Assembly (NCBI GenBank): GCA_964016885.1
Contig: OZ024754.1
Coordinates: forward strand, 45,508,001 to 45,572,000
Reading direction: 5' to 3'
From: Eledone cirrhosa
Lineage: Eukaryota
DNA length: 64,000 nucleotides
Below the pieces are notes generated by a model, which saw only the letters and a list, made by a program, of their open reading frames with translations, was not told the DNA's origin and ran no database searches. The position numbers were made by a program, and so were the translations under genes. This document shows positions 41,703 to 49,609 of this stretch, in pieces. The first letter of the stretch is position 1. Each line of letters opens with the position of its first letter.

Positions 41703-41903
41703 AGTTTTAATATAGATGAGATTCTACAGGGCTAGAACTGTTTCATTCATTAGAAATCATCAGAAATCATGATTCCTGATGATTTCTAAAGAATGAAACA
41801 GTTCTAGTCCTGTAGAATCTCATCTATATTAAAACTTTTATACTCTGCTATGTATTGAGTACCTTACTTACTGTGGTTACCTCCGATTCAACTCGGAATA
41901 ACG
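41703..41903 (+). mobile_element. Palindromic hammerhead element, family B, within (TA)n
   Basis: 67-bp arms 41703-41769/41770-41836 with few mismatches, then a ~65-bp unique tail (TACTCTGC.ATGTATTGAGTACCTTACTTACTGTGGTTA) shared with the 49.4 kb copy. Confidence 0.85.
41771..41819 (+). ncRNA. Type I hammerhead ribozyme motif (family B); mirror copy on - at 41720-41768
   Basis: GATTC-CTGATGA-TTTCTAAAGAAT-GAAACAG-TTCTAGTC-CTGTA-GAATC: stem I GATTC/GAATC, stem III ACAG/CTGT, GUA cleavage triplet. Confidence 0.82.
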
Positions 41904-43153
41904 TATATATATATATATATATATATATATATATATAAGGGTGAAAGCAGCGATTCTTTGCTTAAACTTTAATCTGTTATTTTAATAAATATATATATAT
42001 ATATATATATATATATATTTATATTTATATTTATATATATGTGTGTGTATATATGTATGTATATGTGTGTGTGAGAGAGAGGGGGGGGATGAGAGTGTGT
42101 ACAAGCATATTATGTGTAGATGTCTGTGTATATATTTATGAATGTTTATAAATGCATATATGATCACATGATTTTCTGGGCATCTATGTAGATCTCTGTA
42201 TGTATATAACCAAGAAACTATGACAAATAATTATATAAGTAACAATAAGATTTACACGTAGTCACACTGCGTTCCGAGGCAACGATTTGTCTTAAAACTA
42301 ATTGATCTAATATAAATATGAAGCTCATATAGTTGCTCAATATTTATCAAACTCTTACTGATATTTGTTATTCGAGGGTTTATCAACTACAAATATAAAT
42401 TTCAAAATTACTAAATATTTACAATACTAAATATTTACAATACAAGGTTTGACTAAAGTTAGTAATAAAACTGGTTACGTGTGAGAACATCTAATTAGTG
42501 AGGCTGGAATATTGTAGAGTACTTCCAAAAGTAAATAGAAAAGATGGAGAAGAAATAATTGAAACGAAAAGAAAAAAATATCATCAAAGAGAAGGAAAAG
42601 ATAAGATTAAACAAAGTAGATAAAGAAAGAATGGGAATAAAGGTGAATGAGATGGAGGCAAGGTAATAAGCATTGTGTTCGATAAGTAACATATAACAGT
42701 GGATTGAATAGATAGAAGAAAAAGTAATTGAAAAACATTTGGAATATATCTACTTGTAAAGTCACAGAGACACCGCCCTCTTTCCCGTAGATATTAAACC
42801 ATTACTTTAATAACTTATTAAAACATTATTAACTTATTAAAACATTACTTTAGTAAATTAAACGCCGCAGAAATGAAAGTTATTCAACCTATTACTATCT
42901 GTGTCATTACAAAAGAAACATTAAAGATAAAAAAGTGAAATGTTTCTTATTATACGCATCGAACACTTAAACTTCTCTCTACATTCCAAATTCAAAGAAC
43001 TTCTATTCATCCGTCTTCTCCACATCTGTCTTCCTCTCCTTCCCCTCATAATCTCCATACGTATCTTTATACACAGCCAACACATTCATTGGACATGCAT
43101 AGACACATGAACGCATGCAGAATACAAATATACAACAATATTAATATATATAG

Positions 43154-43301
43154 AGAGATTTGGTGATTAGATGATCATAAGGAATACACTACTTTCTTAT
43201 TTTAATATATATATATATATATATATATATATATATATATATATATATATTACAATAAGAAAGTAGTGTATTCCTTATGATCAGTTAATCACCAAATCTC
43301 T
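43154..43301. repeat. 48-bp inverted repeat around a (TA)n spacer
   Basis: AGAGATTTGGTGATTA..TGATCATAAGGAATACACTACTTTCTTATT mirrored at 43254-43301. Confidence 0.9.
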
Positions 43302-44647
43302 AATTTCCCAAACCCACTATTTCATTTGGACAGCTCAAGGATCTATTCTTCATAATTTCCAATTATCTGCTTTAATTAAGCAGTATAATGAGAGTGGGAT
43401 ACCTCAATATATCATCAATTATTGATACCATTTCAAATGCACAGAGAACTATAGACACAATTCATGGATACACATGCATGCACACGCACACATATAAAGG
43501 TACCTACCTAGATAGAAAAATGCAAGGAGAGGATTACACAATGTTATAAACACGAAGTTCACCGGACTATTTTTATATAAAACAAGAAATTGGATACGAT
43601 TGGTTGCATTAAATCATTTTCGTCATACATTCTAGAAGCAATCACTGCCACAACCCTTCCTTCTCTCTCTATATATATATATCTATCTATCTATCTCTAT
43701 CTCGCTTTCGCTCTCTATCTATTTCTATCTCTCTCGCTCTGTCTCATCTCTATCTCACTCTGTATATATATATATATATATATATATATGTATATATATA
43801 TATATATATATATATATATATACAGGTATGTATATATATATATATATATATATATATATATATATATATATATATATACACAGGTATGTATATATATATA
43901 TATATACTAAAACGAATTATTGCCTTTTGGAAACGCTTTTACCGTTTCACTGCGATGGGGAAAATAATAGCTTGGCCGTAGGGCGCATGATCCACATAAT
44001 GTGTACACTCTACATTTCATAATTCACGTCTACTAAGAGGAATAGTGGGACTAAGAGTTTTAACGTGCAGCATGCGACCATTTCCTTCTTCAGAGAAAAC
44101 AAACACGAAATAATAAATCTGAGTAATTATACATATATATTTCTAGGTACATACACACACACACATACATACATATATTTATATATATATATATATATAC
44201 ATATATATATGTGTGTGTGCATGTATGTATGCATCCACATGCACAAACGCACACACGCACAAACACACACGCATATATATATATATGTATGTATATATAT
44301 ATACATATATATGTATATATATATACATATATATGTATATGTACATACATATATATGTATAGATACACACAGACAGATAGATAGATAGATAGATAGATAG
44401 ATAGATAGATAGATAGATAGATAGATAGATAGATAGATAGATAGATAGATAGATACTATGAGTGTCATGCGATAATTAATTTTTTTTACAATCTTTGATT
44501 TCAAGTTGTAATTGGAAATATTTTCTTTTAATTGGCAGATTTTATTTATTTTTATTACTTTACATCAAAGAAAACATTTCAGAAATGTCCAGGATTTCTA
44601 AATTGGAAATAAAATTGTGTGATTTATTTTATTTTTCGGGTAAAAAA

Positions 44648-44815
44648 CTCCCATTACATTAAAGTCAATATGACGCTGACATTTACTCAAACACTAAGCA
44701 AGGAATGGTGGAACTGTGTTGGCAATAATGTCTGTAGAGATCCAATTCTAATATAGGAGAATTATCACTGGAAGGAAGAAGATGGGAATGGAAAGTATGT
44801 TATGCATCCATTTGA
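44648..44815 (+). pseudogene. Possible decayed cadherin-repeat fragment
   Basis: Cross-frame P.H*SQYDADIYSNTKQG..TVLAIMS.RDP...NYHWKEEDGNGKYVMHP resembles P.F..S.Y.A.I.EN...GT.V..V.A.D.D...Y.....G.F.I.P. Confidence 0.28.
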
Positions 44816-47304: not shown

Positions 47305-48045
47305 GTATGTTCCATCTCTGTTCCACCTAATGATGTCATTCAAGAAAGCATGACAATGCAAAAAAATGTTCAATGGCTGCAAGAGCGCGAGTTTTTTCAA
47401 ACCAGTTGACAATAAACTGTTTATCTAATATATCACCGATTTCTCCTATTATATATTTTGCATTAAGGTAGTTTCTTTCTTTACCAGTGGTGTTCTTTCT
47501 ATACTGCGTTGATGTGCTTTCGATATCTTTGTATAGGTAACTCTATTGAATTATGTGTCTATTCTTTATAGAATAGAATTTTCTGCTAGTATTACACATT
47601 TTAAGATGAAGATGTTGAAACCTTTTCTCAAATGACGCGTCATGACTCTCGATTTATATCTATTGAACCAATAACTATTCCAATACGTATAGAGGGACAT
47701 ATTGGATTTTAGAAATAGTGTTGAAGTAATATATGAGGTTTTTCTTACATAAAAATTACGTATTAAAATTGGAGTCGCTGGATCATCTGAATCCATGTTA
47801 GTTTTAAACGACAATATCAATTGCAAGTAATATCGTTTTATTCAGAAATTTCGTCCAAAAATCTTTTAAAACAATGACGATCTTAGAACATTTACTCTTC
47901 ATGAAATATATAACAGACTCCAAAATGTAATAATGGTATCGGTATATATCCATCACAATGTTTATTACGTGAACCAATCGAATGAATTTCCAACGAATCA
48001 TTATTTATAGGCTAAAATTCAGGCTTGCAGATAATTTTTGCCAGA
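47305..48045 (+). pseudogene. Possible decayed leucine-rich-repeat (TLR-like ectodomain) sequence
   Basis: Cross-frame SVPPNDV..MTMQKNVQWLQEREFF..LT, ETFSQMTR.MTLDL...N.IT, NDDLRTF....YNRLQNV, L.LADNF. Many stops and frameshifts. Confidence 0.3.
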
Positions 48046-48914
48046 AATATAAGGAATATATTCAACAAGGTATCTATTTAACTCAGGATGCCTTGAGCCC
48101 AACAATTACAGAAAACTATTGGTCGTTAACATATGTTTGAAATAGGATACTGTCCAGAAGTAACATTTCATTCTAAACGGATATTAAATGTAGTTCACTG
48201 ACGGCTGAATTAATGTTAATATTTTTTGATGATAGATATTTGTGTTGGAAGTTTGCACCCACGAAGAAACTAATAAACCTTGCAACATATACTGAAGGTA
48301 AAATATATTTTGTATTTTCCTAACAAAAAACATGGTAATCCCCATGTGTGTGTGATTCCGCACACAATAGCACAGACGCATATCATTATATATATATATA
48401 TATATATATATATATATATATATATATATATATGTATGTATATATATACATACATATATATATACATATATATATATGTATGTATATATATATTATATAT
48501 ATATATATATGTGTGTGAGTATGTATATATGTATATATATGTACATATATGTATATATATATAGAGAGAGAGAGAGAAAGAGAGAGAGAAAGAGAGAGAG
48601 AGAAAGAAAATAAGAAAGAGAGATATGGTCATTAAGTGTCTCATGAGGTGTGAGATACAAGGAACATGTTTAATATGTTCAGTATTCTTCATAGAATCGG
48701 CACTCTTTGGAAATGAAACAAAAGACAGCCAGAGTAAAGTGTTAGCTAGAATCACTGTGTGTATGTGAAACAGTGTTAGTGTGTGTGTTTTTGTGTTTGT
48801 GTGTGTGTGTAGACGTATAGGATATAATTTGAGACTTCATTTGTGCGAATGTATTTGATTATTTTAATGTTTCTAGCAGATATCTTAACTGACTGATGCG
48901 GACATAACATAATG

Positions 48915-49403
48915 TATTTATGTATGTATATGTATGAATATATATATATATACATACATGTATATGTATGAATATATATATATATATATATATATATATA
49001 TATATATATATAAATATATATATATATATATAAATATATATATATATATATAAATATATATATATATATATAAATATATATATATATATACATGTATATG
49101 TATGAATAAATATATATATATATATATATATATATATAAATATATATATATATACATGTATATGTATGAATAAATATATATATATATAAATATATATATA
49201 AATATATATATATATACATGTATATGTATGAATAAATATATATATATATATATATATATATAAATATATATATATATATATACATGTATATGTATGAATA
49301 TATATATATATATATATATATATATATATAAATATATATAAATATATATATATATAAATATATATATATATACATGTATATGTATGAATATATATATATA
49401 TAT
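48915..49403. repeat. (TA)n array with a repeated TACATGTATATGTATGAATA unit
   Basis: Direct reading. Confidence 0.92.
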
Positions 49404-49609
49404 ACGTAGGTCCCGGGTTGAGTCGGGGATAACCACAGTAAGTAAGGTACTCAATACATGGCAGAGTAAAATTTTTTTATTTTATAGAAGGAGCTTCTAC
49501 AGGACTAGTACTGTTTCATTCAGATGAAATCTTCAGGCTTCCTGAAGATTTCATCTGAATGAAACAGTACTAGTCCTGTAGAAGCTCCTTCTATAAAATA
49601 AAAAAAAAT
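49404..49609 (-). mobile_element. Palindromic hammerhead element, family B, second copy
   Basis: ~66-bp perfect arms 49472-49537/49541-49606 with loop CTT. Tail 49404-49470 is homologous to 41840-41903 in the opposite orientation. TA arrays on both sides. Confidence 0.87.
49537..49585 (+). ncRNA. Type I hammerhead ribozyme motif (family B)
   Basis: GCTTC-CTGAAGA-TTTCATCTGAAT-GAAACAG-TACTAGTC-CTGTA-GAAGC. Stem I covaries with the 41.8 kb copy. Confidence 0.84.

Follow-up and report, generated by a model that had tools for sequence, protein, structure and literature searches.

Why does a 64-kb stretch of the Eledone cirrhosa genome (hereafter the window) hold short palindromes that lie inside TA microsatellites, carry hammerhead ribozyme motifs and contain no open reading frame (ORF)? 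A first-pass annotation of the window described three such elements, here called e1, e2 and e3, and offered two readings of them: TA-targeted, ultra-short insertions linked to Penelope-like retroelements, or a distinct class of palindromic retrozyme. When the whole genome was searched (3.0 Gb in 1,796 contigs), parent elements encoding a reverse transcriptase (RT) and a GIY-YIG endonuclease (EN) were traced for all three, as the first of these readings had supposed. The elements, which we refer to as stubs, are likely to be the 5’ end of a Penelope-like element of the Hydra clade copied twice, head to head, by two internal primings in one insertion that run off at the predicted RNA start.

Alignment of the arms bore out the proposed layout in each of the three elements: a near-perfect palindrome with a tail on one side only, set between TA runs to the left and right. 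The arms of e1 (41703-41769 and 41770-41836, 67 bp each) have 3 mismatches and are followed by a tail of about 67 bp (41837..41903), with TA runs at 41631..41702 and 41904-41937. Those of e2 (45809-45971 and 45978-46140, 163 bp each) have 2 mismatches and a loop of 6 nt; the 91-bp tail lies to their left (45718..45808), and TA runs cover 45624..45717 and 46141-46182. The 66-bp arms of e3 (49472-49537 and 49541-49606) are without mismatch around a 3-nt loop, with a 68-bp tail at 49404..49471 and TA runs at 48915..49403 and 49610-49786. e1 and e3 represent one family (B), with 79% identity over 190 nt, and e2 (family C) has no BLAST match to either, in keeping with the two unrelated mirrored families described at first reading. 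Counted by exact tail patterns over the whole genome, with reversed controls at 0, tail probe matches number 1,387 (e3), 8,340 (e1) and 816 (e2); a 40-nt e2 tail probe matches e2 alone, which carries private changes. The palindromes are real and not fold-back artefacts, because their flanks are unique and unmirrored, their arms carry mismatches, the e3-type mirror axis recurs at 482 loci and, in two independent DNA runs, one class of loose ends among the raw-read rows listed crosses a mirror axis.

By sequence match, each arm with its tail is the 5’ end (pseudo-long terminal repeat, pLTR, plus 5’ untranslated region, UTR) of an RT and GIY-YIG Penelope-like element elsewhere in the genome. The parents run from a TATA box through a predicted start, hammerhead, A/T-rich run and tail to an RT/GIY-YIG ORF, a 3’ UTR and the pLTR again; their direct pLTR repeats lie 3.1-4.6 kb apart, and inverted tail-less copies lie upstream. 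The window itself yields no RT or EN similarity by tblastn, as had been noted. In e1, the tail-less inverted arm (41703..41769, minus strand) covers the predicted RNA start to +72, and the tail that follows the tail-bearing arm (41770..41836, plus strand) corresponds to the parent’s 5’ UTR on the plus strand, continuing at two loci (L176 and L190) into a paralogous RT ORF that is 78% identical. The e3 tail and tail-bearing arm (49472..49537) are on the minus strand, and the axis with the tail-less arm (49538..49609, plus strand) closes on an A-rich run. A probe for the e3 tail end found 36 matches with C or G at the fifth base beyond it, compared with the 1,387 tail matches; 17 of these 36 share an identical continuation, and an RT/EN ORF was reached in 6 of 7 extended loci (L098-L102 and L104), the putative 5’ UTR running on into it.

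For family C, the tail and tail-bearing arm of e2 (45809..45971) lie on the minus strand, and the axis with the tail-less arm (45972..46140, plus strand) starts at the parent’s initiator-like TCACT and ends at +168. At two loci (L140 and L136) the e2 pLTR is tied to the 3’ side of a related ORF with 42% identity in the RT, the order at L140 being TA, inverted tail-less pLTR, 5’-truncated ORF, pLTR, tail and TA. A search with the 5’ part of the family C ORF returned 20 loci, and the e2 arm and tail were found directly upstream in 10/20, where the putative 5’ UTR runs on into the RT ORF, partially in 5, inverted only in 4 and absent in 1. When family C tails without a following TA were probed for, 26 matches came up and none led to a parent, because the parent itself continues with ATATAT.

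Protein motifs, TA target and hammerhead build together point to the Hydra clade for the parents, a clade which PMC8557442 characterizes, in its accessible portion, by a C-terminal GIY-YIG domain, RW[K/R], DKT, a CxCx5C linker, no CCHH, CxxC and CxH around the E/N residues, a (TA)n target and a length generally below 3 kb, and in which it includes the octopus family Hydra-1_Obim. RT motifs DIEDYY, MGASDS and YRDD and a C-terminal YIG domain are present in L098-L102, L104 and L140. Family B and C parents have RWR (not RWK) and SDKT; the cysteine motifs read CNCPDKRTC/CDLC/CMH in the e3 parent and CNCRNRSNC/CNLC/CLH in the family C parent, CCHH is absent, and a single cysteine stands between the GIY and YIG halves. 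The parent protein has 708 relatives of about 700 aa at E<=1e-10, and Pfam returned 0 families for the 2 parent protein fragments submitted. The hammerhead build of family B, with U on either side of stem II and ACAG..CUGU-A, matches published Hydra-clade entries: in file S2 of PMC8557442, as far as it was accessible, U..U flanks stem II in most families and the ACAG..CUGU-A stem III occurs in Hydra-1_aMil and Penelope-1_NV, whereas the B and C hammerhead sequences themselves match none of its entries. The repeat units of 3.1-4.6 kb exceed the figure of <3 kb, a descriptive and not a strict trait, because of a long, microsatellite-rich 3’ UTR. An early assignment to the Nematis clade was dropped against the Hydra-clade definition. 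Further Hydra-like RT/GIY-YIG families were seen at L097 (sense, 2517-4340, with a 607-aa open stretch through the endonuclease), L093 and L141, and L084/L085 hold 174-bp tandem units of the e3 family that lead into the ORF start and lack the first half of the hammerhead core.

The first-pass annotation had proposed that axis and tail end be checked for fixity. Both were found to be fixed. Sampling the window copy and, in genome order, the first 30 tail matches of each family (n=31 each; low-complexity false inversions were removed, one per B set, L056 and L186), we found a genuine adjacent inverted arm in 21/31 (e3), 18/31 (e1) and 23/31 (e2) copies, and the longer arm of these mirrored copies began within -2..+5 of one base in 17/21, 13/18 and 13/23. 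This base lies 29, 30 and 31 nt below the TATAAA box in the three diverged parent promoters and in family C coincides with TCACT, a motif noted as initiator-like in a rotifer pLTR in the accessible text of PMC3846280. We infer that it is the RNA 5’ end. Unmirrored units share this start (L190, both units of L061, and the downstream unit of the partial tandems L073, L087, L089 and L092). At the other end, the tail stops at the exact same base in 29/31 e3-type copies, and the tail-less arm ends at +168 in 17/23 family C copies and at +59..+74, within an A/T-rich run, in family B. Past the tail end the parents continue with TAT, TA or ATATAT, so both ends of a stub could pair briefly with a nicked TA repeat.

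A fixed axis bears directly on the concern, voiced with the first reading, that the copies are random-axis truncations of a Penelope pLTR. On that account, full-length transcripts primed in the 3’ pLTR would suffer random 5’ truncation and inversion, or longer insertions would collapse by palindrome deletion, and it could call on the scattered axes of some copies (+14 to +176, or upstream of the promoter) and on the heavy 5’ truncation that the available part of PMC8557442 gives as typical of Penelope-like elements. The axis distribution largely refutes it: in three diverged families the majority of axes cluster within 7 nt, at a distance of 29-31 nt below the TATA box of the family concerned, and the unmirrored units begin at the same base. 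We consider random truncation scarcely plausible at all.

In the mechanism that we favor, the element’s endonuclease would nick both strands of the TA repeat and the RT would prime twice; with one cDNA begun at the end of the tail and its partner 65-90 nt upstream of it, a tail would be left on one side only. Priming would depend on 2-7 nt of U/A complementarity to the nicked repeat and, when it falls on the RNA’s 5’ pLTR copy, would give cDNAs of just 70-260 nt that run off the RNA start. At their 3’ ends the two cDNAs would then be joined head to head, either by a short palindrome at the terminus (AGCT in e3) or by other microhomology, followed by fill-in, and the hammerhead would be carried along as an uncut passenger. 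Such stubs would be dead on arrival, because they are without TATA box and ORF. A short cDNA that runs off the RNA 5’ end is known from LTR elements as strong-stop DNA, and in L1 twin priming two primings from both nicked strands lead to 5’ inversion. The two cDNAs of twin priming cover different parts of the RNA, whereas those of an Eledone stub would cover the same part. In vitro, two RT start sites were found to bound the tail and uncut RNA was the main substrate (PMC11167929, accessible portion). The wider proposal, that Hydra-clade insertion proceeds by a pair of reverse transcriptions of one RNA segment, each from one of the two TA nicks, and that priming in the 5’ pLTR yields strong-stop-like stubs which seed thousands of perfect 60-170 bp hammerhead hairpins, seems to us evenly poised between right and wrong.

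The junctions between the arms suggest that the palindrome is made at the target. When the first 50 of the 482 e3 axes were tallied by hand, 17 junction forms were found: 13 perfect AGCT overlaps, 11 junctions one base short, 7, 4 and 3 other simple joins and 12 singletons, some of which carry extra bases. A-rich ends also differ among near-identical e3 copies. Because junctions and A-rich ends vary in this way, the palindrome is probably made anew at each insertion. The same 13 perfect AGCT palindromes also speak for another route, in which parents and run-off are as above and the mirror arm arises by fold-back: the cDNA self-primes on its terminal palindrome (or antisense RNA self-primes) and is afterwards attached, at the A/T-rich run, to the TA end on the far side. 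Self-priming has been proposed for the palindromic inverted junctions of rotifer Penelopes (PMC3846280, in the part available), and fold-back would explain why arms share subfamily variants wherever these could be scored in the sampled palindromes (10/10, 7/7 and 16/16, one of the 10 being a neighbouring e3-type copy). This concordance indicates that both arms come from one RNA or one source and speaks against two unrelated RNAs. The sole discordant case seen is e1, whose arms differ at one loop II base that distinguishes common subfamily variants (41745-41796), through either later mutation or the use of two templates.

What makes fold-back unlikely in our estimation is the geometry of the arms. 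The tail-less arm often holds sequence that is missing from the tail arm (e.g., L032, L106, L108, L110, L132 and L180), reaching up to 300 nt further 5’ (L106, L108 and L123), and a simple fold-back cannot make a longer tail-less arm unless the other arm is later deleted; the reverse case, with the tail arm holding the extra sequence, was seen in L107, L128 and L172. The tail-less end matches the tail end in how sharply it is fixed; it is also the point at which the direct 3’ pLTRs of long copies close (L101, L102 and L104), and it therefore acts like a priming site. A few copies (L092, L124 and L126) have a tail on both arms, in which case both cDNAs would have one start site.

Several observations count against two primings with run-off at the RNA start and temper our confidence in it. 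The concordance of arm variants fits fold-back just as well, and arm asymmetry may equally arise by later deletion within the palindrome. The RNA start itself is predicted from TATA spacing and insertion ends alone. Both arms lie at the start in just 4/23 mirrored family C copies, two of the family C loci (L113 and L114) look like one duplicated insertion, and among all sampled copies about one in three is a longer form that carries the promoter. Genome-wide, 555 e3-type pLTRs retain the promoter, about equal to the 482 stubs, and the stubs are therefore a major product and not the sole one. All six extended e3 parents are broken by stops or frameshifts, with no unbroken ORF seen among them. 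In the accessible portion of PMC11167929, PAc primes in vitro without target homology, unlike the TA complementarity that we invoke. On the supporting side, raw reads from two DNA runs, aligned to one parent’s promoter-to-ORF stretch, cover the start-to-tail segment at a depth of 130-1,230 reads per mate direction, compared with <=24 upstream and <=15 in the ORF, and in contigs of two organisms each of the fixed points is marked by loose TA ends; these runs are reduced-representation libraries with reads mostly 88-95% alike to the reference, and they establish the pattern as real and shared without giving exact proportions for it. The read ends seen at 7074 may reflect restriction sites and were left unused as evidence for the RNA start.

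Could the stub instead be an independent, non-autonomous element (a palindromic retrozyme or a Penelope SINE), transcribed by read-through and mobilised again as one unit? In favor of this reading, the 40 best matches to e3 cover its whole 206 nt at 97-100% identity on many contigs, and three junction types account for 31/50 axes; this match set selects e3-like copies, however, and junctions and A-rich ends vary even within it. The junctions seen most often are the simplest joins by microhomology, and the base that they lack can be missing from either arm. Stubs are without a TATA box, and a perfect 66-163 bp hairpin would mask the hammerhead. A retrozyme is by definition a head-to-tail tandem, whereas the window elements are head-to-head; among the first 100 listed e3 tail matches there was one two-unit tandem separated by TA (L061), which speaks for such a unit, and at L062 a three-copy flank duplication. 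L061 (G000:C1:241944500-241950500), with its two head-to-tail start-to-tail units, a TA run between them and a nested double palindrome nearby, is the nearest case to a retrozyme-like tandem that we saw. The first-pass alternative of a distinct palindromic retrozyme class thus gives way: arm plus tail equals an autonomous parent’s 5’ end, junctions and A-rich ends vary, and no adjacent mirror was present in 9/31 (e3), 12/31 (e1) and 8/31 (e2) sampled tail copies. We judge propagation of the stub as a unit to be very improbable.

The hammerhead cores, too, are real as motifs. Searched with a type I hammerhead descriptor, the window yields 6 motifs, compared with 1 in 30 shuffled windows, and these six are accounted for by five of the six palindrome arms and an unmirrored element at 55148-55103 (minus strand). 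The core CUGANGA/GAAA/UH with its three stems is present in 5/6 arms, so that the claim of a hammerhead pointing outward on each strand holds for e1 and e2 and fails for one arm of e3, which has one complete hammerhead and not two: its tail-bearing arm keeps the core, and stem I is interrupted at the junction, where its 5’ strand is gone. In e1, the tail-less arm has its core at 41763-41725 and the tail-bearing arm a type I hammerhead at 41771-41819, with cleavage predicted after 41814 (GUA). The e2 motifs have their core at 45914-45864 in the tail-bearing arm and span 46027-46093 (plus strand) in the tail-less arm, with a predicted cut after 46085; the complete e3 motif covers 49537-49585, with a predicted cut after 49580. 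Family B is ordered as stem I, CUGANGA, U, a 3-bp stem II, U, GAA, ACAG/loop/CUGU, A and stem I, and its cleavage triplet is the GUA after stem III (ACAG...CUGU) and not the first TA. Stem I covaries between e1 and e3 (GAUUC/GAAUC vs GCUUC/GAAGC). In 743 kb of loci, a set picked for these families and including some overlapping loci, the descriptor found 340 motifs and 0 after shuffling. These loci hold 155 distinct hammerhead motif sequences that come from many other families and have a palindromic loop 3, and different hammerhead families accumulate within the same TA runs.

The Rfam scan proposed with the first reading gave no hammerhead model among 150 of the 475 window match rows, those listed being microsatellite matches to miRNA models below the gathering score, nor did the right arms of e2 and e3, each scanned alone, return one at E<=10. 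In single family B arms, those of e1 and e3, the hammerhead fold is predicted about 3 kcal/mol above the minimum (the two comparisons being -5.1 vs -8.2 and -2.6 vs -6.0). The full-stub hairpin is predicted at -105 to -276 kcal/mol, compared with the two values for the family B hammerhead fold (-2.6 and -5.1), and because of this a switch between hairpin and ribozyme in a whole-stub transcript seems unlikely.

Much of this has precedent. The inverted pLTR whose tail is on one side, the TA target and the paired hammerheads on opposite strands have all been published (PMC3846280, PMC8557442 and PMC4209133), and the verdict is that these are new families within a known clade, useful for the signature of mechanism that they carry, and no new element class. 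Eledone parents have protein motifs, (TA)n target and hammerhead build in common with the Hydra clade, in which Penelope-13_HM has an inverted 5’-truncated copy, and differ in their longer units and in start-anchored palindromic stubs, which the available part of PMC8557442 does not describe. With Penelope/Poseidon elements (PMC3846280 and PMC11167929, as far as accessible) they share a head-to-head inverted pLTR, a short junction palindrome, a tail at one end, a pLTR site with TATA and an initiator-like TCACT, two RT starts that bound the tail and an uncut hammerhead; the tail here is 65-90 bp and lies in the 5’ UTR, whereas there it is 30-40 bp and lies in the ORF, the insertion here is reduced to two pLTR fronts, and for the elements studied there the junction is ascribed to antisense self-priming. 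Opposite-strand minimal hammerhead pairs in Schistosoma mansoni (PMC4209133) likewise consist of two motifs, separated by 100-700 bp and interpreted as truncated Penelope-like elements, with an extra base after A9 and a palindromic loop 3; they belong to the Cercyon family, and the accessible text of that report gives no analysis of axis, tail or target. Non-LTR retrozymes (PMC7229834; bioRxiv 10.64898/2026.07.22.740005, both as available in part) are also ORF-less and pLTR-derived with a type I hammerhead, but they are head-to-tail tandems that give circular RNA, whereas Eledone stubs are head-to-head, promoterless and, it appears, rebuilt per insertion. We found no account in the literature of start-anchored stubs as a major product; Repbase, Dfam and most subscription papers lay outside this search, and earlier annotation is possible there.

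Other features of the window touch on the same subject. The unmirrored hammerhead element between TA runs at 55053..55217 (minus strand) belongs to a third family (A), with a second copy at 139-301 (plus strand) that is 95% identical. The statement that family A occurs without a mirror is true of both window copies and does not extend to relatives with an 82-84% similar hammerhead region, which do build mirror-plus-tail structures (L093, L152 and L191). A further palindrome between TA runs (54541-54848) has identical 85-bp arms, a short TA-like spacer and a one-sided tail of about 105 bp; it has no hammerhead motif, its relatives at L021, L062 and L072 are 73-76% similar, and it is possibly a stub of a hammerhead-less Penelope-like family, e.g., Naiad. 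Between microsatellites at 50638-50713 lies a decayed family-B-like remnant with a 27-nt stem III-region match adjoining a tail-like end. The window also holds multi-kilobase TA-based arrays (12502-14835, 19109-23380, 30184-34777 and 53480-63160) and 200 N.

The origin of the inverted pLTRs and tails of Penelope-like elements is stated to be unresolved in PMC8557442 and has been partly answered in vitro in PMC11167929, each as available in part. In Eledone, both priming sites and the run-off point can be read to the base in three diverged families from young copies that number in the thousands (97-100% identity in the e3 subfamily), and competing models can therefore be tested from genome data alone. 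Annotation is prone to mistake such stubs for miniature inverted-repeat transposable elements (MITEs), for miRNA hairpins or for fold-backs of the assembly, and hammerhead totals come out too high because of them. Paired reverse transcription from both nicks, if true, would supply one rule for the inverted pLTR and the one-sided tail of all Penelope-like elements. If stubs do seed hairpins, this animal’s editing and small-RNA pathways would have in them a large supply of double-stranded RNA that keeps being renewed.

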